Counted from the first letter of the stretch, positions 9,674 to 42,300 are shown. The stretch is 64,000 bases of DNA from Spirochaetota bacterium (GCA_031549085.1 JAVBQL010000020.1:1163-65162), one strand, 5' to 3'. Notes: generated by a model not told the origin, from the sequence alone. Program-made: numbers and translations.

Positions 9674-10309
9674 CTATATAAAGTATCTAAGTCCTGTTAT
9701 AACCTTGCCAACAATAGCAAAGTTTGCATAGTTAAGTTCATTCTCCCCGCGATCCACAACCTCATCTTTATAGAGGCTGCTGTCTGAAAGAATAATAACT
9801 TTCTTGTTATTAACAAACTGCAACCTTTTAACCATAAGGTTTCCATTTATACTTATAACATAGAGCCCATCAACATCAATTAAATTGAGAATAAAAACAG
9901 CATAGTCTCCATTAAGAAAAGTAGGACTCATAGAGTCACCCTTTACAGTAATGATTAGAGCATTATCAATCATAGCTCTAACATTGTAGTTTCCAAAGAG
10001 ATATCTGTCTGCATCTATATAGTTTATTACGTTTGCTTGATCTTTTATATTAGAAAAAGATGTAATTTTTGAAGCAAGGACAGGAACAGTAACCTTTGTA
10101 TTCCCTTGACTATCACCAAATCCCTTCATTAGCCAATCAAAATTGATGTTAAAGATCTCACATATCTTGAATTTAACATCATCTGGTGTATTTGTTTTAT
10201 TATTTTCGTAATCACTAAGACTTGCCTGCTTGATATTCAAGAGCTTTGCAAGACTTTTTTGATCAATACTGTTCTGTTTTCTTAAGGTTTTTATTTGTTC
10301 ACCAATCAT
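9674..10309 (-). CDS. XRE-HTH / peptidase S24 (LexA/CI-like) self-cleaving repressor
   Basis: N-terminal HTH (IKTLRKQNSIDQKSLAKLLNIKQASLSDYENNK). C-terminal S24 Ser-Lys dyad motifs GDSMSPTF and LMVKRL. SD AAAGGAG. Confidence 0.85.
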   Translation of the reverse strand: MIGEQIKTLRKQNSIDQKSLAKLLNIKQASLSDYENNKTNTPDDVKFKICEIFNINFDWLMKGFGDSQGNTKVTVPVLASKITSFSNIKDQANVINYIDADRYLFGNYNVRAMIDNALIITVKGDSMSPTFLNGDYAVFILNLIDVDGLYVISINGNLMVKRLQFVNNKKVIILSDSSLYKDEVVDRGENELNYANFAIVGKVITGLRYFI

Positions 10310-31370: not shown

Positions 31371-32201
31371 ATGGATGAGAAAAATAAGAGTGAGACAAAT
31401 GACAAAGAGGTTAGCGATAACATTATAACTAATAATTATGATGCTATCGGTGATTTTAAATATGGACTGGCTAAAGTAGTAAAGAATAATCTTTGGGGCA
31501 TAATTGATAAAGATCATAATGAGATAATTAAGCCCAAATATAACCATATAAACGATTTTAAATATGGTCTTGCATGGGCAGAGCTTGATCATAAGTGGGG
31601 CTTGGTTTCAAATGATGGAAGAGAGCTAGTTCATCCGAAATATGATGATGCAAGTGATTTTTATAGTGAGATGGCATTTATCAAAATTAATAATAAGTGG
31701 GGAACAATCTCGACATCTGGACATGAGATGGCCCCTCCAAAATATGATTGGATAGGGACTCCAAAAAATGGGTATACTTTGGTAAAAATTGATGAAAAAG
31801 ATGGACCAAAATATGGCTATATAAACAGTGCTGGAGTTGAGACAATAGAGCCTCAATATGATTTTGCAGAATCATTTAATAGAGAAATAGCGCTTGTATC
31901 AGCTAATGATAAGTTTTTTTATATTGATAAAAATAATAGGCACATAACAAACCACTATGACTCTATAGAGCCCTTTCAAGATGGGGTTGCAAGAGTCGTT
32001 TTAAATAGAAAATGCGGCTTTATTAATGAGTATGGAAAAGAGATTGTCCCTCCTAAATATGACTCTATTAGTGAGTTTAAAGATAGGCTTGCTTGGGGTA
32101 AAATTGGCAATGAGTTTGTAGAACTAAAGAGAGAGAGAGATAGCAATTACGAGGTCATTATAACCGAACAAAAGACCGTAAATAGTATTGAAGAAAAATA
32201 G
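31371..32201 (+). CDS. WG-repeat protein
   Basis: 276 aa with units such as LWGIIDKDHNEIIKPKYNHINDFKYGLAWA and KWGLVSNDGRELVHPKYDDASDFYSEMAFI. Confidence 0.85.
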   Translation: MDEKNKSETNDKEVSDNIITNNYDAIGDFKYGLAKVVKNNLWGIIDKDHNEIIKPKYNHINDFKYGLAWAELDHKWGLVSNDGRELVHPKYDDASDFYSEMAFIKINNKWGTISTSGHEMAPPKYDWIGTPKNGYTLVKIDEKDGPKYGYINSAGVETIEPQYDFAESFNREIALVSANDKFFYIDKNNRHITNHYDSIEPFQDGVARVVLNRKCGFINEYGKEIVPPKYDSISEFKDRLAWGKIGNEFVELKRERDSNYEVIITEQKTVNSIEEK

Positions 32202-32403
32202 TATTATACTCACATAATAACCACTCTATATAACAAACACACTATTTAAACTAAACAAAAAAAAATATATAAAAAAAAACAATATAAATTATTAATATTG
32301 ACTATTATGTCTAATAGTATTATTCTATAATAATTAGTATTATTAGATAATAAAAGAGGCACAATTTTTATATTAAGCAGTATTAATATCTGATTAAATT
32401 AAA

Positions 32404-32416
32404 TAATTTCGTTTTT
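32404..32416 (+). repeat. ATTTCGTTTTT motif copy 1 (upstream of S24 repressor)
   Basis: TAATTTCGTTTTTG. Other copies are at 36219-36232 (+), 38751-38763 (+) and 38711-38724 (inverted). Confidence 0.5.
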
Positions 32417-32528
32417 GATTGTATATTAATCTGTTTTTGTTCACCTCTTTATTATTATAGTAATGTATTCTTCGTTGGATATTATACATGTTATAATATA
32501 TTATTATTTTATTAAAAAAGGTGGTTTT

Positions 32529-33170
32529 ATGATGGACAACATTGGGACAAGACTCACTACATTAAGAGAGTCTTTAAAAGAGACTAAAGCTTCATTTGCA
32601 GCGAGTATAAAGATATCACCGCAAAGATTACATAATTATGAAACTGGAAAGAGAAATATTCCTCAAGATATCCTTGATCGTTTAAAAAAAATGTATAGAG
32701 TAAATCTTGAGTGGCTTCTATATGGCATTGATGACATGTTTATCGCAGAGGGAAAGCTACAATACCCCCTTTTGGAACAGAAAGTATCTGCAGGAATGCA
32801 GGCTGTTATTTTTGATGATATTTTAGATAAGCCTTCTCGCTATCTATCTGTTTCACGTGATATACTTGGAAGACATGCTAATGAAAAAGCATTTTTTATG
32901 ATCGTTGTTGGAAACAGTATGGAACCTAAGATCAAAAATGGAGATCTAATTGCATCAGTTAGAATAAGCCATCCTGAAATGATCAATGATACATATGTAA
33001 TCAGATATAATGGAATTATGATGGTAAAAAATATTCAGTGGCTCTCCCCTACAGAGATAATAATCATAAGTGAAAATAAAATTTATGAGCCTATAAGAAT
33101 AAGGCTTAATGAAAACCAGACAGACTTTGCCATTTTAGGGAAAGTGATATTCCATGGAGAGTTTTACTAA
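32529..33170 (+). CDS. XRE-HTH / peptidase S24 (CI/LexA-like) repressor, second copy in window
   Basis: Start moved to ATG 32529 (AAGGTGG 4 nt upstream). HTH: LTTLRESLKETKASFAASIKISPQRLHNYETGKR. S24 motifs: GNSMEPKI and MMVKNI. Confidence 0.85.
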   Translation: MMDNIGTRLTTLRESLKETKASFAASIKISPQRLHNYETGKRNIPQDILDRLKKMYRVNLEWLLYGIDDMFIAEGKLQYPLLEQKVSAGMQAVIFDDILDKPSRYLSVSRDILGRHANEKAFFMIVVGNSMEPKIKNGDLIASVRISHPEMINDTYVIRYNGIMMVKNIQWLSPTEIIIISENKIYEPIRIRLNENQTDFAILGKVIFHGEFY

Positions 33171-33185
33171 AACTATTATAGACAC

Positions 33186-33527
33186 TTAGGCATCAACAGA
33201 AAATATCTTCTCACCCTTCTCATTGATAAAAACATATCCAGAAAGCTTTGATACAACAAGCTTTCTGATTTTGTAGTTATCTTTATTTTTTAGAAACTCA
33301 TCATAAAACTTAGAGATAAACTCTCTAAATGTCCCCTCAACCTCTACCTTTAAAAGCAAAATATTATTTCCAGAATCATCCTCATTATCACTATTTTTTT
33401 TATTAAAAAAAGAGAGAACATCTGATGCAAATTGGCTGCTATTATTAGCATCTTGAAGAAGATAGTTTATAATAATATCTATTTTTCTCTTTGGTTTTCT
33501 TCTGTTGTATAATTTTGTCTCTGACAT
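33186..33527 (-). CDS. Hypothetical 113-aa protein
   Basis: ATG with AAGGAG 5 nt upstream. Basic N-terminus (RRKPKRK). No recognisable motif. Confidence 0.6.
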   Translation of the reverse strand: MSETKLYNRRKPKRKIDIIINYLLQDANNSSQFASDVLSFFNKKNSDNEDDSGNNILLLKVEVEGTFREFISKFYDEFLKNKDNYKIRKLVVSKLSGYVFINEKGEKIFSVDA

Positions 33528-33967
33528 ATTTTCTCCTTCTATTTTTAAACTAAAAAAAATAAAGACCCTATTAAACAGAGAACATTATAACATTACTAAA
33601 AAAATTGGTCTATTCTTATCTGACAATAATTTCAAATAATTATTTATAAACAGGTATTTATAAATCATAGAAAGAAAAAAATAAATTTAGTTTATGTAAA
33701 ATTTGTGTAACACTATATAATAAATTATTATTATACTTAATTAAAAATAATTTTAGCGATATTCTAGTAGATAAGAATATTTATTATTTCTGATCTATAA
33801 AACACTCTATAGATCTACTTTTCAAAGCAAACATAACAAAAAATTCAACTAAAATAGAATAAAAAAATATATTTTTATCTTATAAAATATTCATTAAAAT
33901 TGTAAAATATATTATGTTACTGTATATTTTTATCTATTTATTTTATCTTTTCTTCGGGAGGTTAATT

Positions 33968-34498
33968 ATGTCTATGTATGACGAAATCCACAAGTTTAGC
34001 GGCGACTTGATGAAAGTTAAGCTATATTGCAAGTGGGGTCTAATAACAAAGGATAATAGAGAAGTCCTTGAACCAAAATATGACTCCATTAGTTATTTCA
34101 ACGATGATGGCTTTGCAGAGATTAAACTTGATGGCAGAACAGGCCGTATTAATATGAAAGGCATTGTATGTATTCAACCTAAATATGATACAATTGATAT
34201 GGGCTATTCTGACATCCTCTATAAAGTCAGGGTCAACAACCGATGGGGGTTGATAGAAGCAAACTATTGCACTGAAGTTATTCCGCCTCAGTATGATGAA
34301 CTTTTGAAACCTTATAGTGGTCTTATCCCTGTAAAGTTTAACAAGAAGTGGGGATTTATAGATATCGATGATAAGGAGATCATTAGATTTAAGTACGACG
34401 AAATCATATTTGATGATGACTTCGTTATGGGAAGAGTAGGTGATAGCTACCAGCTTATCAATCTTGACTTGCAAAATTGCGCAAAAATATCTTTATAG
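33968..34498 (+). CDS. WG-repeat protein (inside the plasmid-like island)
   Basis: Start moved to ATG 33968 (GGGAGG 6 nt upstream). Units include KWGLITKDNREVLEPKYDSISYFNDDGFAE and RWGLIEANYCTEVIPPQYDELLKPYSGLIPV. Confidence 0.8.
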   Translation: MSMYDEIHKFSGDLMKVKLYCKWGLITKDNREVLEPKYDSISYFNDDGFAEIKLDGRTGRINMKGIVCIQPKYDTIDMGYSDILYKVRVNNRWGLIEANYCTEVIPPQYDELLKPYSGLIPVKFNKKWGFIDIDDKEIIRFKYDEIIFDDDFVMGRVGDSYQLINLDLQNCAKISL

Positions 34499-34519
34499 TA
34501 AAAAAAATAAAATAAATAG

Positions 34520-34552
34520 AGTCCCTAAACTTGTAAGGGGGGGGACTTTTTA
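34520..34552 (+). terminator. Terminator-like hairpin after 33968..34498
   Basis: AGTCCC...GGGACT stem, followed by TTTTT. Confidence 0.45.
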
Positions 34553-34657
34553 AGGAAATATTCCAATTTTATAAAATTAACTATATTCTAAAAAAAATAA
34601 TTTTCAAAAACTGCCAGCATATAATATATCTAATTAAAAACAAAACATTATAATAAT

Positions 34658-35587
34658 CTAGCCTATCATAGCAAGAAAATGGCTTATTAGGGCTGCCTCC
34701 GTTACTGTTTCAAGTAAATTTTTATCATCGTATACTTTTTTATCTGCCATTAGCTTTTCTGTGATTTCAGTTCTAAGTTTTGAAATATCATTAAGAGAAC
34801 TATCTTTAATCATCTTTTTAGCTATTGCAACCTTTTCTGCAGAAGAGAGAGAGGGTCTATTCTGTTTTTCTGACTTATATGTGTCATAGAGTGGATCTAT
34901 CCACTCATCCATTATAGACATATAGAGATATGTTGCTTTTGATCGTATCTTTTTTGGATGATTTTTTAGTAAAAATCTTATCTGCTCTATCTTCTCTTGG
35001 ATGAAAAATAGATCTCTTTTATTAATTATTTTATCTATTTGGCTATTTGATATTCCAAACTCCTTCAAGGTTTTTAAAATTATCGACTTAGCCTCTTCGT
35101 CTTCTGTTTTATTTTTCTCTGTTTTAAGATCTTGTATAGCTACCTCATTTTGTTTGGTTGGAGTTTTTGTTTTTTGATTTTCCATTTGTGATTTTGAGCA
35201 AATGGAACTATTATTTTTGTTTAAGGTCTCTAAATCCTCTTTTTCAGAACTACTGGAGCTATTTTGGCTGCAACTATTGATGATCTCATTCATAAAATCA
35301 TCATCAACAAAAGTATACCATATCGTTCTATCATACTTTATTTTATTGTGATTATCTTTTATGAGTATATTACTATCTACTAGATCTTGGATAGTTTTTC
35401 TGATCTTTGTTATATTAATAAACGGAAATTTTTCTTTTAAACTATCAATTGTCTGGTATGTCCAATACTTGTCATTAACAAAGTTTTTATTATTTTTTTT
35501 ATTTATATTTATCCAAAATGCAAAGTTCTGCAGAATTATAGCACTGGTAATGCCAAATTTCAGCATCAGATTATCATTGATATACAT
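34658..35587 (-). CDS. Putative replication-initiator/DnaD-like winged-helix protein (weak call)
   Basis: 309 aa, AAAGGAG 9 nt upstream. The N-terminal ~100 aa (LKFGITSAIILQNFAFWI...WTYQTIDSLKEKFPFINITKIRKTIQDLVDSNILIK) resemble the wHTH of phage/plasmid replication organisers. The context is next to parA. Confidence 0.4.
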   Translation of the reverse strand: MYINDNLMLKFGITSAIILQNFAFWININKKNNKNFVNDKYWTYQTIDSLKEKFPFINITKIRKTIQDLVDSNILIKDNHNKIKYDRTIWYTFVDDDFMNEIINSCSQNSSSSSEKEDLETLNKNNSSICSKSQMENQKTKTPTKQNEVAIQDLKTEKNKTEDEEAKSIILKTLKEFGISNSQIDKIINKRDLFFIQEKIEQIRFLLKNHPKKIRSKATYLYMSIMDEWIDPLYDTYKSEKQNRPSLSSAEKVAIAKKMIKDSSLNDISKLRTEITEKLMADKKVYDDKNLLETVTEAALISHFLAMIG

Positions 35588-35809
35588 GAAAGAGGTCTCC
35601 TTTTATATTTTTTAAAATTCTAATTAGACAAAACAATATACACTCAAATCATATTAAAAAATTTGAGAGGTTTAATTTTAAAGCTGATTTATCTTTTGCC
35701 TTTAAGATCTCATCAATTATTTAAGTAGATCTTACGCATAGATATATAAATACAGCTTTTTTAGAGATAAAATAAAAATTATTTTTTATGAAAAAATAAA
35801 ATATTTTTT

Positions 35810-35943
35810 TTGACTTGACAAAACCAGATAAATATAATAGATTTGAAACAACTAAATTTCTAATTTCATATTATATGTATCAGCCTTTTATTCTTATAGA
35901 TTGCCGTCTTTAAGTATAAGGGCTGGTTTTTTTGTCGAATCTA
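35810..35943 (+). ncRNA. Candidate ~100-nt small RNA or attenuated leader in the rep-parA divergent region
   Basis: TTGACT (35810-15), N17, TATAAT (35833-38). Hairpin CAGCCTTT.../...AAGGGCTG (35881-35935) is followed by G+T7. Confidence 0.3.
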
Positions 35944-35962
35944 TTTTTTGCCTCCTTTATTG

Positions 35963-35980
35963 TGTGCAACCGGTTGCACA
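35963..35980. promoter_or_regulatory. 18-bp perfect GC-rich palindrome TGTGCAACCGGTTGCACA (copy 1, upstream of parA)
   Basis: Read directly from the sequence. It lies in the divergent rep-like/parA intergenic region. Confidence 0.6.
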
Positions 35981-36352
35981 TTTAATTTTATTTATTTTTA
36001 CCACCATTATGGGTATTTTTTACTTCTCATCAAAACACTCTTTTCTCTGCTTCATTTATTACTCTCTTTTGCTTCTCCCATCCAAGATCGATATATGCTC
36101 AACTTGCTAAATTACAAAATATTATAGGTTATTAAAAGACAAAAGTCAATTTAAAATTCCCGAAATTTAAAAAAAACGATCTTTTCGGGATCTTCTCTTT
36201 GATTATTAATTATCGAGATTAATTTCGTTTTTTTAACATTAATTTGCTTTTTTTTTTTATATTTCTATGATATATTATAACTTGATTTTCATCAAAAATA
36301 AAGAGTTAATTTAGAAATTTGCTTTTCTAGATTAAATGTTAAGAGGTTCTTT

Positions 36353-37288
36353 ATGCAATTGATATCAGTAAAAGAGGCTGTTAGTTTAATTAAGGTACCA
36401 GATAGTACATTGAGAGACTGGATTGATAATGGAACTCTTGAAAAATATAAAGATGAGAAGGGTTTTATCTGCCTTGATAAGAGACAAGTCTTAAGATTGA
36501 TGCCTACGGTTATAGCTTTTTATAACTATAAAGGGGGTGTCTCAAAAACCAGCATGAGTATATTGATGGGGGATTACTACGAGAAGCGTAAAGAAAAAAT
36601 ATTATTAATTGATCTAGATCCTCAATCCAATTTGACCAAAAGCTTTTTTTCAGATGATGATATCCATGATGGTGTCAATCATGAGTACCGGAATACACTA
36701 TATGATTTCTTTAATGATAAAAAATCCCTCTCAAAAATTGTTATGCACTATAATGATTATATTGATGTTTTACCATCTAAACTGGAGTTAATGGAAAAAT
36801 CGACTATTAATGATTTTGATCTATTAGATTATAAAATAGAGTTTAGCAATTTCTTTAAAAAATACTCAATCGTTATAATAGATTGTCCTCCTGCACTTAA
36901 TGCATTTACATCTACAGGCCTTCTACTAGCAAATTATGTGTATATTCCATTTGTTCCAGAGCCATTTGCATATGATGGATTGGTTTCTATGTTAAAAACT
37001 ATGCAAAAAATAACTCCATACAATAAAGATTTTATTGATTATAGAATTGTCTATTCAAAAGTTAAGGGACAAAAAACAATTATTCATGAAAACTATATTA
37101 ATCATGTAAACACTCAAATGAGTGGCAAAATTATAGATAACCATAAGATCCCAGATTTTATAGGCATTGTTGAGAGGGGAGCGTCAAAACAAAATATCTT
37201 TGATATGTATCCAGGAGATACACCTGCACAGAAAATAACAGAGTTGTTTGATGAACTTGATAAAATTATGTTTGAAGAAAGAACTTAG
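36353..37288 (+). CDS. parA: ParA/Soj-family partition ATPase with N-terminal MerR/excisionase-type HTH
   Basis: HTH: ISVKEAVSLIKVPDSTLRDWIDNG. Deviant Walker A: FYNYKGGVSKTS. Also LLIDLDPQSNL and Walker B VIIDCPPAL. SD AAGAGG. Confidence 0.85.
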   Translation: MQLISVKEAVSLIKVPDSTLRDWIDNGTLEKYKDEKGFICLDKRQVLRLMPTVIAFYNYKGGVSKTSMSILMGDYYEKRKEKILLIDLDPQSNLTKSFFSDDDIHDGVNHEYRNTLYDFFNDKKSLSKIVMHYNDYIDVLPSKLELMEKSTINDFDLLDYKIEFSNFFKKYSIVIIDCPPALNAFTSTGLLLANYVYIPFVPEPFAYDGLVSMLKTMQKITPYNKDFIDYRIVYSKVKGQKTIIHENYINHVNTQMSGKIIDNHKIPDFIGIVERGASKQNIFDMYPGDTPAQKITELFDELDKIMFEERT

Positions 37289-37290
37289 TT

Positions 37291-37307
37291 TGTGCAACCG
37301 GTTGCAC
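37291..37307. promoter_or_regulatory. Palindrome TGTGCAACCGGTTGCAC (copy 2, immediately downstream of parA)
   Basis: The same 16-bp core, GTGCAACCGGTTGCAC, starts 3 nt after the parA stop. Confidence 0.6.
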
Positions 37308-37316
37308 TCTTGAGAG

Positions 37317-38222
37317 CTAATCAAGAATATATCTTTCCAAACGATTTAACTCTTCTAGACATTTTTCAAATATAGATTCATAAGTGGTGTGATCGAATTT
37401 TATATATCCAACATTTTGATGAAATCGCTCTTCATCATCTTCTGGAATGATAAAATCATTTCCAAAACGCATCAGCATAAAGAATTGAGCATATAACTTT
37501 TTTTCTAAAATATATTCAATATCATTAGATTTTTCGTAGTTCATCTTCAGAACAACCATTAGTGTAGATTGTTCAAGGCTATATTCTACTTGCCAGTAAA
37601 AAATAATCTTATTTATATGAATGCTATTCCATTCAAATCCTAATTTATCAATAATATCTTCACTATTTTTTACATCGATTTTTGATAAATTGAATAAGTT
37701 TTCGATAGTAACATATGACCACTCACTTATTGGCTTCGCTATATCGAGTTTTTTTTCTTTCTCTATGTTTGTAATGTAGTTCAAATAATCATGATAGATT
37801 CTGCTGTTTATATCTTTTTCATATCTTTTTAATATTGTTATAAGTTTATCTCTCGTAAAAACTTTATATGGCTCCACTATATTTGGATTTTCATCCTTAA
37901 TATTAAAATAGATACAAATAAGATTATTATCATCAAATTTTTTAAGATATCTGCCTGTTATAATCCCGTGGTAAGTTTTTTTTGCATCTGGAACAATCTT
38001 ATCATCTATTATTAAAACATATTTATCATCTATTATAACTATTATACCAATATCATACTTCTCTTTGATAATACGAACTTTTTTAAAATCCTCTTTTAAG
38101 TTTGTTAAGCTCTGTAAAAGTAGTGTAGCAGTCAGAAAAAGTGGGTTAGCATCATCTCCTTCATCATTTACAAGATTTAAAAGGCGACTTATAAAATCAT
38201 TTTGTGTTAATGCTTCTTTCAT
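37317..38222 (-). CDS. PD-(D/E)XK-nuclease-like hypothetical protein (weak call)
   Basis: Start moved to ATG 38222 (AAAGGG 7 nt upstream). YDIGIIVIIDDKYVLIIDDKIVPDAKK resembles the iDl...iiIEnKi core strand motif of PDDEXK families. Confidence 0.4.
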   Translation of the reverse strand: MKEALTQNDFISRLLNLVNDEGDDANPLFLTATLLLQSLTNLKEDFKKVRIIKEKYDIGIIVIIDDKYVLIIDDKIVPDAKKTYHGIITGRYLKKFDDNNLICIYFNIKDENPNIVEPYKVFTRDKLITILKRYEKDINSRIYHDYLNYITNIEKEKKLDIAKPISEWSYVTIENLFNLSKIDVKNSEDIIDKLGFEWNSIHINKIIFYWQVEYSLEQSTLMVVLKMNYEKSNDIEYILEKKLYAQFFMLMRFGNDFIIPEDDEERFHQNVGYIKFDHTTYESIFEKCLEELNRLERYILD

Positions 38223-38710
38223 AATTATACCCTTTATATGTATAAAGCAATCTTTAAAATAGGTTGATGTTATATATATTATAAAATAATAAATATAAAA
38301 CACTATATATGATAAATAGATATACTATTTTAGTTTAAGCAGACAATAGGACATATATAACAGATATTTCATTTTTTTGCTACCATTATTTTCTTTTTTA
38401 AGAGATGAAAATATTTTTCTTTAATTTATGGTAAAAAGACTTTTTAATATATATTAAAGTAATACTTTTAAAAAAAATAGAGAAAAGAACATAATTTATT
38501 TTTAAAAGCAATAATTTAATAGAAAAATATTGATTTATAGATATAAAAAGATATAATGTATTGTATTATGGTAAATAATTTTATTAAGTGAGCTCTTATT
38601 TATATTAGTAAAATAGATGAAACTTATATAATCATTCTTAAGAATATAGTATAAGATGAAAGTTTTTTCCAAAATATAATGAAAAAGTTTATAAAAGTAT
38701 TTTAACAGAT

Positions 38711-38763
38711 AAAAACGAAATAATCTATTATATTGATCATTTTTAAAAAATATTTCGTTTTTG
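38711..38763. repeat. Inverted pair of the ATTTCGTTTTT motif
   Basis: AAAAACGAAATAAT (38711-24) and TATTTCGTTTTTG (38751-63) face each other across 26 nt. Confidence 0.5.
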
Positions 38764-38983
38764 CTTATAGCTTTTATTGCTATTTCAAGATTATACTGAT
38801 AAGTCTGTGATTTTTTATCTCTTTATGTTTATTCTTATACAAATATAGAGAGTGAATCTTTTTTATAATAAAAAAATTGTTGATTTTTCGATAAAATAGA
38901 TTTATATTTAACTATCTAAAAAAACAATTTAAGGAGAATACTTTACGATATTAAGTTCTCTTGTATCTTATATAAGGTTATTT

Positions 38984-39158
38984 AAACTAAAACAGATAGG
39001 CCCATAAATTTAAGTAGTTCTTTAGTTTTAGTTTCTAAAATGATAAGTTATTTTTATTCATAAGTGATTTAGTTTTGTACATTGTCATAAGTGATTCAAA
39101 AAAGATGTGCAAAACAATTGTTTTTTGCTTATTTTTTTGGGCCTTTCTGTTTTAGTTT
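38984..39158. repeat. 20-bp long-range inverted repeat with a GGCCCATAAA core, copy e
   Basis: AAACTAAAACAGATAGGCCC (38984-39003) / GGGCCTTTCTGTTTTAGTTT (39139-58), one mismatch. The interior carries TCATAAGTGATT twice. Confidence 0.6.
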
Positions 39159-39398
39159 TAAAGAATAATCTTTTAACCTCTTTTATCTATCTGTTTTTTT
39201 TGCAATTCTAATTGTCTTATAGTCATCCAATTCTTTTATTAACCTCTTTCACATTATAAATAGTTAGAAACACATATTTTAAATAAATAATATGTGTTAT
39301 AAACTGATTATCTTAAAAAAAAGTGTTACCACCCTTATTGATACTATGAAGCAACAATAAGTTGGTAACACTATATTCTTAAATACTATCTCTCTAAA

Positions 39399-42300
39399 TT
39401 AGAAGAGAGCATTTCTTATACCAAATCCTATTTGTGGTATCAGTCTACTGTTAACTTCAGAGGCAATGAAGTAGAATGCAGCCTCCATATAGAGTGCGAA
39501 CTTTCTAAATCCATAGTATCTCTCAACCTTAAAGAAGTCCCACTGGAACATAAAACCAGCAAGTAGTCGGTCAGTTCTCTTGATATCACTATTAGGCTGA
39601 AAAGATGCAGCCCATGTATCGAAGTCTTCTTGGCTACCACCAGAGAACCCACTCATCCAGAAGAACCCTGCACCAATCTCTATTGACCATGAGAAGTTTT
39701 TAGCATCTTCTCCAAAGAAGAACTCAAATGGGATATCAATTACACGGGCTAATATCTTCCCTCCAGCAGCGAAACCACTATATGCGGGGTAATATTGACC
39801 ATACTGCCATCCCCAATTTTCTGAGAATATAGGGTCATCAAGATTGATCCCCATTGCAACAAGGTTCTCTCTTGTTGGAGTCCAACCAAACATCGCCTCC
39901 AGACGCACTATATCATCAAAGAATGATAACCCAAACCCTGTTGATAGAAATGGTCCACCATAGACCTGTGCCCATAGGTACAACCCCTCAATAAATTTAG
40001 GGAGCTTACCAGCGTTTTTATCAAACTGCTTAAATAGAAGTTTAACTTCAGTTATATCATTATTATCTTCAGCGATACCCTTAATAACCACCTTCTCATT
40101 GACTTTTGCGTTCTCAAGAGGAGTATTGATTGTGACTGTTGGCAATTTTCTATCTATTGCTACTTTAAAGTATTGAATACTACTCTTATTTGTGAATGTC
40201 GTTGCCTTTAATTGAAGGGTATGATTTCCATCAAGTAGGTATTGGCTTTGAAGTCTAACAATCCAATCTTTAGTAATTCCTCCGAGTGCCTGTTCAAAAG
40301 TATTTCCATTGTCAATGGTTAGAGCGATATTTTTGATCTTGTTTTTAGCTTTTTGCTGATTAACAAGGCTCATAACCTCAAATTTTGAGACTGGAATTTG
40401 ATCTGGTTCTGGAAGCAGTTCTGGGTTCTTCACATACTTTTTCTTTAGTTGATAATATTTTTTCAACTGAAGCTCTTTTTTCATCTTCAATTCTATATTT
40501 CTTTCATAATATTGAGCTGTTCCCTTAAGCCATGGTCTATGCTCTATTGGCTTTCCATTTGTATGTGAAGTAACATTTATTATAGGACCTGACTCTTGAT
40601 AGTAGAATGTTCTTAAAATTGGTCCAGATGATTTTGGAGGGAATCTAGGATCGAGTTGCTTCTCTGTTGCAATAACTGTAACACTATGTAAACCTTCAGT
40701 TAGATCTCCTGCAGGGAAGGTATACTTCCATACATCAGTTCCCTCTGCCGTGAAGAATTCTCCATTATCAATTTTTACTTTAACAAATTCAAGTCCATCA
40801 TCATCATATGCCGTTCCATAAAACTCAATAATATCTCCCATTATGCTTTGGTTACTTTGTGGTTGGTCAAGCTCTACTGTTGGAAGATCTGACATAGGAT
40901 CTACCAAAAAGAATGAGCTCTTTTCTGTTACATTTCCTGCAATATCAACTGCTTTGATTAGGATATAATATTTATACATAGGAGGCCATCTTGTGGTATC
41001 AATCTCATAGTACCACGCCTCTTTTCCAATTGTTTCCGCATATCCATCCTCATCAGCAATTTCACTTGGAAGCATGGAGTTGTTGTTTTCATCAACTATT
41101 TTTATATATACATTATCTAAAGCGATGTTATCACTTGCACGTCCCTCTATTTTATAGATATTATTGACTGATTCTCCTACTCTAGGACGAATTATACCAA
41201 CCTCTGGAGGGGTGTTGTCGACGTTGTACATCGCAAATGAGTATGATTCACTTCCAGCCTTATCTCTTGCTCTAATCAAGAACTTTAATATTCCATCAGG
41301 CAGAGCCTTGGTATTTAAATAGTAGTTCCAGCTCTCTTTACCATTGGCCAACTGGAATGACCAACCATTATTGATCGATATTGAGACCTCTTCAATTCCG
41401 TTAGGGTCAACAGCTCGCCCTGTTACAATTCGCTCATCTTTCAGATAGCTTCCATTTGGAGGGCTAAATAGTGATATAACAGGATTTTCATAGTCAAGCT
41501 GGAATCTGACGGTCTTTATATCACTCTTGATTCCAAGGATATCTATCGCCTGAACCTCAATAATATGCTCTCCTGCAACCATTTTACCCTTATCTATAAA
41601 GATTTCCCAGTTTGTTCGATTTGCAGAGAGGGGAGCTTCATGCCATTTTGCATACTCTGTTCCCTTTGATTCAATGATATCTCCCTCATCATTTAGGTAG
41701 ATCTTTCCATGATCAAGCTTATACATAACAGATGCAATTTCATCATCATCAAGGGCTAGACCAGTAATATTTACAACATCACTGAATCTCTCTCCCTCAA
41801 TTGCAGGGCTATTGATGTATACTTTTGGTCTATCTGTTAATGTATCAAATATAATAGACGCCTTTGCTATTGAGGTGTTTCCAGCTCTATCTACTCCAAC
41901 AACATCTATACTTATTGGTTTTGGCTCTGTATTTGTAAGGTCAATGCCATTTATTGCATAGAGGTCATAGTAGCCTTCCCAATATGAGATTCCATTTGCC
42001 AATATCTTCTTTCCATTCAATAAGAAATATGTAGAGTCAACTCTATTGTTATCACTTGTTGTTCCTCTTATTGTAATATTACCATTTTGAGTACTGTTTT
42101 CTGATGGCACCAATATTTTAGTCTCTGGAGGGGTTGTATCATATGTTAGATGATAGATTAATGTTGTCTTTTTTCCAGCATTGTCTTCAACAATCAGAGT
42201 GACTGTATTGTCCCCCTCTTTTAACTGCTCTTTAGGGACATCTATAACAAACATTCTTCCATCATTAAAAAAGAGTCCATTAGTCATAGATTGATAATCT

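Follow-up and report, generated by a model that had tools for sequence, protein, structure and literature searches.

In a 64 000-nt stretch of DNA from an uncultured spirochaete (hereafter the window; positions 1163-65162 of the 67-kb contig C11), we identified the region at 32.3-38.8 kb, with a probability of roughly 70%, as the part of a plasmid-type element that contains its basic replicon and its partition locus. A replication initiator-like gene is placed here divergently from the gene of a ParA-type ATPase, and parA is flanked by two exact copies of a 16-bp palindrome that, judged by their sequence and placement, look like candidate centromere sites. The Rep/ParA cassette is real, plasmid-type and spirochaete-specific, a non-Borrelia counterpart of the PF32/PF49 systems. 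As read from its sequence, the locus in the window is a derived form without the partner gene in cis. The initial annotation of this DNA had proposed a plasmid- or prophage-like island bounded by identical 12-mers, of which the plasmid-type module is retained below and the boundaries are not.

The window was derived from a metagenome-assembled genome (MAG; G000) of 2.68 Mb in 33 contigs, 88% complete and with a GC content of ~32%, and its host is an uncultured spirochaete of anaerobic-digester-type communities. Comparisons were made at the family level (six genomes) or with metagenome contigs, as the set included no other member of this genus. The relatives named below are 'Spirochaetes bacterium' MAGs, namely ADurb.Bin133 (G001), GWD1_27_9 (G004) and Go_SlDig_bin_318 (G005), and the samples of G001 and G005 were of digester or sludge origin. 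Two metagenomic sequences are also used repeatedly: a ~13.9-kb circular plasmid (pl14, represented by contigs L024 and L025) and a 1.6-kb contig of a related organism (L023). The core features of the locus are as follows (window positions).

34658-35587, minus strand: replication initiator-like protein (Rep309), with an N-terminal winged helix-turn-helix (wHTH) of the phage replication-initiator/DnaD-like type and a C-terminal LYxSIxDxW domain
35964-35979, strandless: first copy of the 16-bp palindrome GTGCAACCGGTTGCAC (35963-35980 when its flanks are included, 18 bp), a candidate centromere
36353-37288, plus strand: ParA-type Walker ATPase (KGGVSKT) with a helix-turn-helix (HTH)-like N-terminal extension of ~50 aa (AAA_31 7.6e-34, CbiA 1.2e-12, phrog_164 1.7e-41)
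37292-37307, strandless: second copy of GTGCAACCGGTTGCAC, 3 nt past the parA stop, where orthologous loci have the partner gene

A recurring Rep/ParA cassette

Rep309 matched phrog_11233 'replication initiation protein' (1.1e-25, residues 2-162), phrog_6493 'DnaD-like helicase loader' (2.2e-15) and phrog_428 (8e-4), while no match was obtained in Pfam or in a PDB sequence search and no record by exact-protein look-up; the earlier Rep-like call thus survives the profile search through PHROGs alone. Its homologs are few and are always divergent from a ParA gene, namely in contig C18 of the same MAG, G004, G005, L039, L027 and pl14, and the LYxSIxDxW domain is common to the Reps of C18, G004, G005, pl14 and a groundwater contig. 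This recurring arrangement and the homology of Rep to phage and plasmid initiators uphold the proposed plasmid-type replication and partition module. The segment is not universally syntenic among relatives, those of the family sharing only parA and its palindrome.

One of these modules is located on a circular molecule. The ends of L024 overlap by 141 nt, and L025 has the same sequence (99.98-100% identity) in circularly permuted form, which together give the ~13.9-kb plasmid, where identities are 38% for Rep, 36% for the HTH-ParA and 42-47% for the partner. The two contigs (ENA ERZ27262927 k141_415260 and ERZ27262924 k141_265893, respectively) have a GC content of 30% and a partner gene with an intragenic 20-bp palindrome, and their cargo includes a YafQ-type toxin gene preceded by a small open reading frame (ORF), a Bsp6I-type restriction-modification system, and tyrosine recombinase, FRG and DUF7669 genes. 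A paralogous and complete module, in which the Rep gene (326 aa) is divergent from those of ParA (312 aa) and a partner (255 aa), was found at C18:28527-31824 (L013 6525-9828). Its Rep and ParA are 37 and 42% identical to those of the window, three WG-repeat genes follow it, and C18 also carries peptidase- and pectinesterase-like accessory genes.

Autonomous replicon or integrated remnant

Whether C11 is an autonomous replicon or an integrated copy stands at roughly even odds. The strongest competing explanation, which we regard as rather unlikely, is a decayed or domesticated episome in the chromosome. The locus would then no longer drive autonomous replication or partition, its Rep and ParA being relics or its ParA having been co-opted. 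Such an episome would account for the absence of the partner gene in cis and of integrase or mobilisation genes, for the binning of C11 together with the chromosome, and for the trmL-like SpoU gene of C11 having a 67% ortholog on the ParA contig of G001. Four further observations weigh against a plasmid-type replicon, the first and the last of them also favoring such a remnant. No terminal overlap, and hence no circular signature, was found at the ends of any MAG contig. The element boundaries cannot be mapped because the closest relatives of the MAG are only at the family level. No iteron array was found near rep, where only weak two-copy AT-rich repeats occur (e.g. 35757-35811, period 24). 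Finally, in ADurb.Bin133 (G001 and three metagenome contigs), a ParA-partner pair is found without Rep on contigs of 69-87 kb, which appear chromosomal because many of their conserved genes are shared with other contigs of the same genome, and the pair can therefore live outside a plasmid-type Rep context.

Against decay, all of the ORFs are intact, two perfect copies of the palindrome are retained, and the layout of parA, palindrome and a convergent PDDEXK-like gene is kept in a second organism (L023) under purifying selection. ParA is 65-68% identical to its orthologs in three family genomes, a divergence equal to that of conserved genes shared with G001. The only housekeeping genes recognized on C11 are SpoU methylase-like and pyridoxal-kinase-like; its gene content is mostly accessory (TPR, ankyrin, WG-repeat, NHL and MCP genes, three Ig-array proteins of ~2,000 aa and a nuclease), and dnaA (C20) and canonical parAB are on other contigs, with a canonical ParA/ParB pair on C24. 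The full module on C18 and up to seven partner genes in one relative also point to multipartite genomes. G005 has seven partner-family matches, six of which are strong and complete on separate small contigs, and G006 and G009 have three each. The several partner genes of G005 on small contigs therefore suggest multipartite genomes in this order, and Borrelia-like genomes with several Rep/ParA/PF49-like modules may be common in this uncultured group.

The left end of C11 is a WG-repeat array. At the other end, the last 141 nt (C11:67185-67325) are identical, in the same orientation, to the last 141 nt of the dnaA contig (C20:349027-349167); we read this as a repeat at which the assembly graph branches (k = 141) and not as evidence of linkage. 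GC skew over window positions 1-64000 tracks the coding strand, and its sign change at ~45.5 kb coincides with a divergent pair of giant genes; because the skew follows gene orientation, it does not place an origin.

ParA and the candidate centromere sites

The Walker A motif of ParA (KGGVSKT) is of the deviant form of type I systems. In the ParA tree, the C11 protein groups with those of G004, G001, G005 and L039 (87/99 support), and its N-terminal extension is kept at full length in the MAG orthologs and in that of the Thiospirochaeta plasmid pSpe. Whereas the AAA_31 match leaves the ParA part of the earlier HTH-ParA call secure, the MerR-type HTH assigned to the extension stays below threshold (MerR_1 E 0.038; HTH_17 E 0.001, with 19.7 bits vs the 27-bit cut-off).

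The two copies of GTGCAACCGGTTGCAC flanking parA are 1.3 kb apart, and the sequence occurs nowhere else in the 2.68 Mb with up to three mismatches. Among the six family genomes, the pattern GYGCAACNNGTTGCRC was found once each in G001, G004 and G005, always at the par locus, and was absent from G002 and G003, while a reversed-pattern control gave 0 occurrences. Counted by genome, the palindrome is present in all four with a ParA ortholog and in neither of the two without one. Substitutions between lineages are symmetric and keep the dyad (GTGCAAC/GTTGCAC, GCGCAAC/GTTGCGC and GTGCAAA/TTTGCAC). The position is variable: in G001 and G005 (AQLVAR) and pl14 (VQTFAH), the palindrome falls within the partner ORF and on identical codons, whereas it is directly 3' of the partner stop in G004 and L038, and directly 3' of the parA stop in the window and L023. 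A GTGCAA-type palindrome was not found in the C18, pSpe and L039 modules. Because the site stays with the genes but not with the promoter, we consider it centromere-like; ParA would be the partition ATPase and the two genome-unique palindromes its centromere sites, bound by an HTH protein of the PF49-like family.

It is improbable that the palindromes are instead operators of the N-terminal HTH of ParA (type Ia autoregulation) or bidirectional hairpin terminators. The HTH-like extension is kept in all orthologs, copy 2 and the copies of G004 and L038 immediately follow stop codons, and, as a point against the centromere assignment, the palindrome may also fold as a short hairpin, copy 1 being scored as terminator-like in the terminator scan. 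However, the position relative to the parA promoter varies (upstream, downstream or inside the partner ORF), and the intragenic copies in G001, G005 and pl14 cannot terminate the gene in which they reside. Moreover, the palindrome is perfect over 16-20 bp without a loop, no T-run follows copy 2, and genome uniqueness with symmetric substitutions fits a dimeric DNA-binding protein.

The partner gene

In G001, G004, G005, L038, L039, pSpe, pl14 and C18, parA is followed by a gene for a partner of 254-296 aa, often with a 4-nt overlap. These proteins combine a central HTH with a basic, ParB/ParZ-like N-terminal peptide that includes an R-G-x-L type motif, and the family is kept from pSpe to the present MAGs. 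In the window, parA is followed by 3 nt, the palindrome and then a convergent gene, with no partner adjoining, and a tblastn search with five partner homologs found no remnant on C11, its matches in the MAG being at C18:31060 and C10:8303. The 'solitary ParA' of the initial annotation is thus correct in that no ParB or partner stands alongside; it is a derived state and not a design, as orthologous loci keep a PF49-like partner.

A precomputed match to PF01672 (PF01672.22) is recorded for 27 of the 29 partner-family proteins, marked 'weak' for pl14. PF01672 is the Borrelia PF49 family (PMC6945570), and PF49 is thought to be a ParB-like centromeric protein of Borrelia plasmids (PMC10406323). 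As evidence to the contrary, a current Pfam scan of nine partner members gave no PF01672, with sub-threshold DUF3102 and HTH_11 only, and the link between the partner and PF49 is therefore provisional. A PDB sequence search with the partner profile found nothing.

The match on C10 (8303-9067) is an intact orphan partner gene of the PF49-like type (254 aa, N-terminal MSKKKSF..GRGNL), with no adjacent ParA or palindrome. It is flanked by ABC-transporter-like and chromosomal-looking genes, with a XerD-like recombinase 5 kb away; by eye, we take its neighbors to be housekeeping genes (gatB-, flgB-, argC- and xerD-like). Compared with the partners of G004 and G001, the orphan has 50% identity. Its SRRTAYNYIELVE helix recurs unchanged in the G004 and L038 partners, precisely those with the exact palindrome of the window at their loci. 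The partner tree is a star, a point against the orphan as the cognate partner, the case for which is made by the identity values and the shared helix only. The partner gene appears to have been lost from the window locus, and the C10 orphan probably supplies the protein in trans. Another partner-like gene, weak and N-terminally truncated (225 aa), is located at C17:59316-59993 amid sigma-factor-like and small phage-like ORFs.

We also considered a more specific model, which is speculative and on balance unlikely, where C11, at 67 kb or more, would be a secondary replicon of low copy number whose partition system is split: parA and two palindromes here and the PF49-like protein on C10. GTGCAA(N4)TTGCAC, which often lies within the ORF of the partner itself, would then be a centromere type not previously defined for spirochaete PF32/PF49-like systems, with an evolutionary link to the binding of Borrelia ParZ to its own gene. 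If true, such a split system, with the C10 partner in a chromosome-like context, would lock plasmid and host together.

The putative initiator and its possible regulation

Two predicted transcription signals in the rep-parA spacer bear on the regulation of Rep309.

35810-35935, plus strand: predicted small transcription unit of a ~90-nt RNA, with promoter TTGACT-N17-TATAAT (35810-35838, 11/12), hairpin (35879-35927) and U-run
36121-36149, minus strand: promoter-like site TTGACT-N17-TATAAT (11/12), facing the small unit; it would give rep a leader of ~525 nt through palindrome 1

These two 11/12 sigma-70-like sites, which face each other, are the best in 7.2 kb, the terminator fold of the small unit has a z of -2.5, and analogous promoter-terminator units are found beside rep in C18 and G004. 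As a point against these assignments, the total of promoter-like sites is not above that of shuffles (58 vs 53). Rep309 would be an initiator transcribed leftward, probably from the strong promoter at 36149-36121, and the small unit would produce an RNA antisense to the rep leader, in the manner of countertranscript copy control. We therefore list the ~90-nt RNA as a candidate countertranscript or leader. In an Rfam search of the 64 kb, nothing reached the gathering threshold, and one snoRNA match (E 0.22) was due to chance.

The most distant homolog of Rep309 (27%) was found in L029/L030 (JGI 3300020049 and 3300020047), where the surrounding block is phage-like and encodes RecT, a DEAD helicase and N6/N4 methylases; the initiator family is therefore tied to phages besides plasmids.

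The repeated 12-mers and the repressor

The proposed ends of the island contain a repeated motif, which we list with the repressor gene.

32406-32416, plus strand: ATTTCGTTTTT copy 1, within the left 12-mer, 113 nt upstream of the repressor ATG
32529-33170, plus strand: repressor with XRE-HTH and S24 peptidase domains (CI/LexA-like, self-cleaving type; Pfam 3e-18, phrog_4 repressor 2e-38)
36222-36232, plus strand: ATTTCGTTTTT copy 2, 120 nt before the parA ATG
38711-38762: inverted pair of ATTTCGTTTTT (38711-38721 minus, 38752-38762 plus), including the right 12-mer, ~490-540 nt upstream of the PDDEXK-like gene

The two identical 12-mers exist in direct orientation, at 32406-32417 and 38752-38763, the left one having been placed one base off in the initial annotation. 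Their identity alone means little because many 12-mers recur exactly in this AT-rich sequence: over 32200-39400, 44 different ones do so, where ~20 were expected from a Markov-1 simulation. Their 11-nt core ATTTCGTTTTT has nine copies in the 2.68-Mb genome, of which four are in this 6.4 kb and all intergenic, and it was absent from all of the 37 foreign loci searched. One of the five copies outside the island is at C17:56371, 3 kb from the partner-like gene described above. The four intergenic island copies make an island-specific operator or promoter element more likely than recombination ends. They may be operator-like sites before three outward transcription units (the repressor, parA and the PDDEXK-like gene), and the XRE-S24 repressor of the island, itself confirmed by its Pfam and PHROG matches, would be their simplest binder; against this, the 11-mer lacks the palindromic symmetry that is usual for sites of dimeric CI-like repressors. 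Including this repressor, the genome encodes four paralogs of the kind; a second, 30% identical, is at window positions 9674-10309, and the other two are on C1 and C30.

The identical 12-mers in direct orientation at both ends, the CI-like repressor and the resemblance of Rep to phage initiators are what a genomic island or prophage with attL/attR at the 12-mers would offer, its empty site being a single ATTTCGTTTTTG joining 32405|38764, but this is very improbable given the four copies with one internal and one inverted, the abundance of repeated 12-mers across the same 7.2 kb, the parA/PDDEXK-like layout of L023 that spans the same stretch without the motif, and the lack of an integrase on C11 and of phage structural genes in the 64 kb. 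For the same reasons (four copies including an internal one and an inverted pair, absence from related loci, no recombinase), we discarded the proposed att-like or iteron-like boundaries. The reported absence of an integrase was corroborated: PF00589 is absent from C11, with matches in the MAG on C32, C10, C25 and C23 only, and no recombinase domain was found in window ORFs of at least 100 aa. The prophage reading is not supported by the same ORFs, among which no structural genes, terminase or integrase were found over the 64 kb. A tRNA search found none, and thus there is no tRNA-type integration site.

The PDDEXK_4-like gene and other accessory genes

The remaining genes of the region, namely the PDDEXK_4-like, 113-aa and WG-repeat genes, are accessory.

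33186-33527, minus strand: 113-aa ORF with a basic N-terminus, no homologs detected
33914-34498, plus strand: WG-repeat protein (WG_beta_rep, Pfam)
37317-38222, minus strand: divergent protein of 301 aa, probably of the PDDEXK_4 family, the ORF being open up to GTG 38303

The ORFs of the initial annotation were all recovered at the same coordinates and intact, and its WG-repeat gene has a WG_beta_rep match in Pfam. The true start of this gene is likely ATG 33968, which is preceded by a GGGAGG site; it is cargo-type, and such genes are common genome-wide.

For the PDDEXK-like protein, neither Pfam nor PHROG gave a direct match. An exhaustive phmmer search recovered 66 remote homologs, which are close to it in length and reach E values of 1e-11, and all 10 of those tested match PDDEXK_4 (PF14281), eight above the curated cut-off, so that the earlier PD-(D/E)XK call survives by transitive homology. 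The near-invariant Asp of PDDEXK_4 is G59 here and Ala in its only close homolog (69%), and the conserved Gln is Tyr84, while the E-D-K element is retained as D73-D74-K75; the full catalytic D...(D/E)-x-K motif is thus absent. Against the 69% homolog, which has the same layout in L023, dN/dS is 0.15, indicating purifying selection. Given this selection, the first Asp being Gly59 and the retained D73-D74-K75, we regard the protein as a functional but probably catalytically altered member of PDDEXK_4. An AlphaFold2 (AF2) model built from 23 sequences (pLDDT 80.7; an earlier one from two sequences, with pLDDT 37, was not used) has the N-terminal order helix-helix-three strands-helix-strand, and Foldseek of this model against the PDB found nothing with E below 0.06.

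Next to the region, a 181-nt element (38981-39161) with inverted arms of ~20-34 nt (TTTAAACTAAAACAGA...) lies downstream of a 1960-aa gene, and both its sequence and position are kept in L023 (bases 1-175). A structured 3' element and a long terminator are both conceivable for it; a miniature inverted-repeat transposable element was ruled out, as it is single-copy in the genome.

Comparison with known systems

For the predicted ~90-nt RNA, the likeness is to the countertranscripts of pT181, pIP501 and R1 (CopA type), where a short RNA with a strong promoter and an intrinsic terminator opposes a long rep leader; here, in contrast, both the RNA and the leader are predictions, with no Rfam match and no sequence conservation between modules.

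Type Ia partition systems (P1 ParA/ParB/parS and F SopA/SopB/sopC) are similar in their large ParA with an N-terminal HTH, which is HTH-like here, and in a centromere downstream of the operon, which is a candidate one here. They differ in that the partner here is not of the ParB/Srx fold, the HTH call is sub-threshold, and the site is a single or double palindrome of 16-20 bp instead of a repeat array.

The best named match of ParA is from Thiospirochaeta perfilievii pSpe (NZ_CP035808), with 37.6% identity over the full length; the next two genes there encode, in this order, a partner homolog of 291 aa and a PDDEXK nuclease-domain protein. In contrast to the window, pSpe has no GTGCAA-type palindrome, and its PDDEXK gene is co-directional with no detectable similarity to that of the window; BLAST found no Rep309 homolog in a 12.9-kb stretch near the pSpe par locus.

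The Borrelia PF32 (ParA)/PF49/PF50/PF57-62 cassette resembles the present one as a spirochaete replicon core, where a ParA-type ATPase is found beside a non-ParB partner with an initiator adjacent; the partner family has the precomputed PF01672 matches, and relatives carry several modules per genome. The initiator differs, however, being phage-O/DnaD-like wHTH and not PF50 (PF02890) or PF57/62 (PF02414); the Reps of G004 and G005 match Phage_rep_O, and those of C18 and the window have no Pfam match. ParA here also has the extra HTH-like N-terminal extension, the partner gene is missing from the locus, the hosts are spirochaetes that live free in digesters, and PF01672 in the partners is not reproduced by the current Pfam scan.

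The chromosomal ParA/ParZ system of Borrelia burgdorferi pairs ParA with a non-ParB centromere-binder whose N-terminus bears a basic peptide like that of ParB and whose binding site is its own coding region (Takacs et al. 2022, PMC9712426). Similarly, in three lineages the candidate site falls within the partner ORF, and the R-G-x-L type motif is present at the N-termini of the partners. The differences are that ParA in the window is not of the chromosomal Soj type and that its site is outside any partner gene.

Together, these results replace an attractive but wrong reading of the region as an att-bounded island. The candidate site moves among three positions, inside the partner gene, just after it or flanking parA, yet stays with the ParA/partner pair, and the window, where the locus has parted from its partner gene, is a natural experiment. 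For Borrelia, the role of PF49 as the centromere protein is only presumed, and neither PMC10406323 nor PMC9712426 defines a centromere sequence. Plasmid segregation in spirochaetes is poorly understood, and these environmental relatives provide a simple and testable candidate site.

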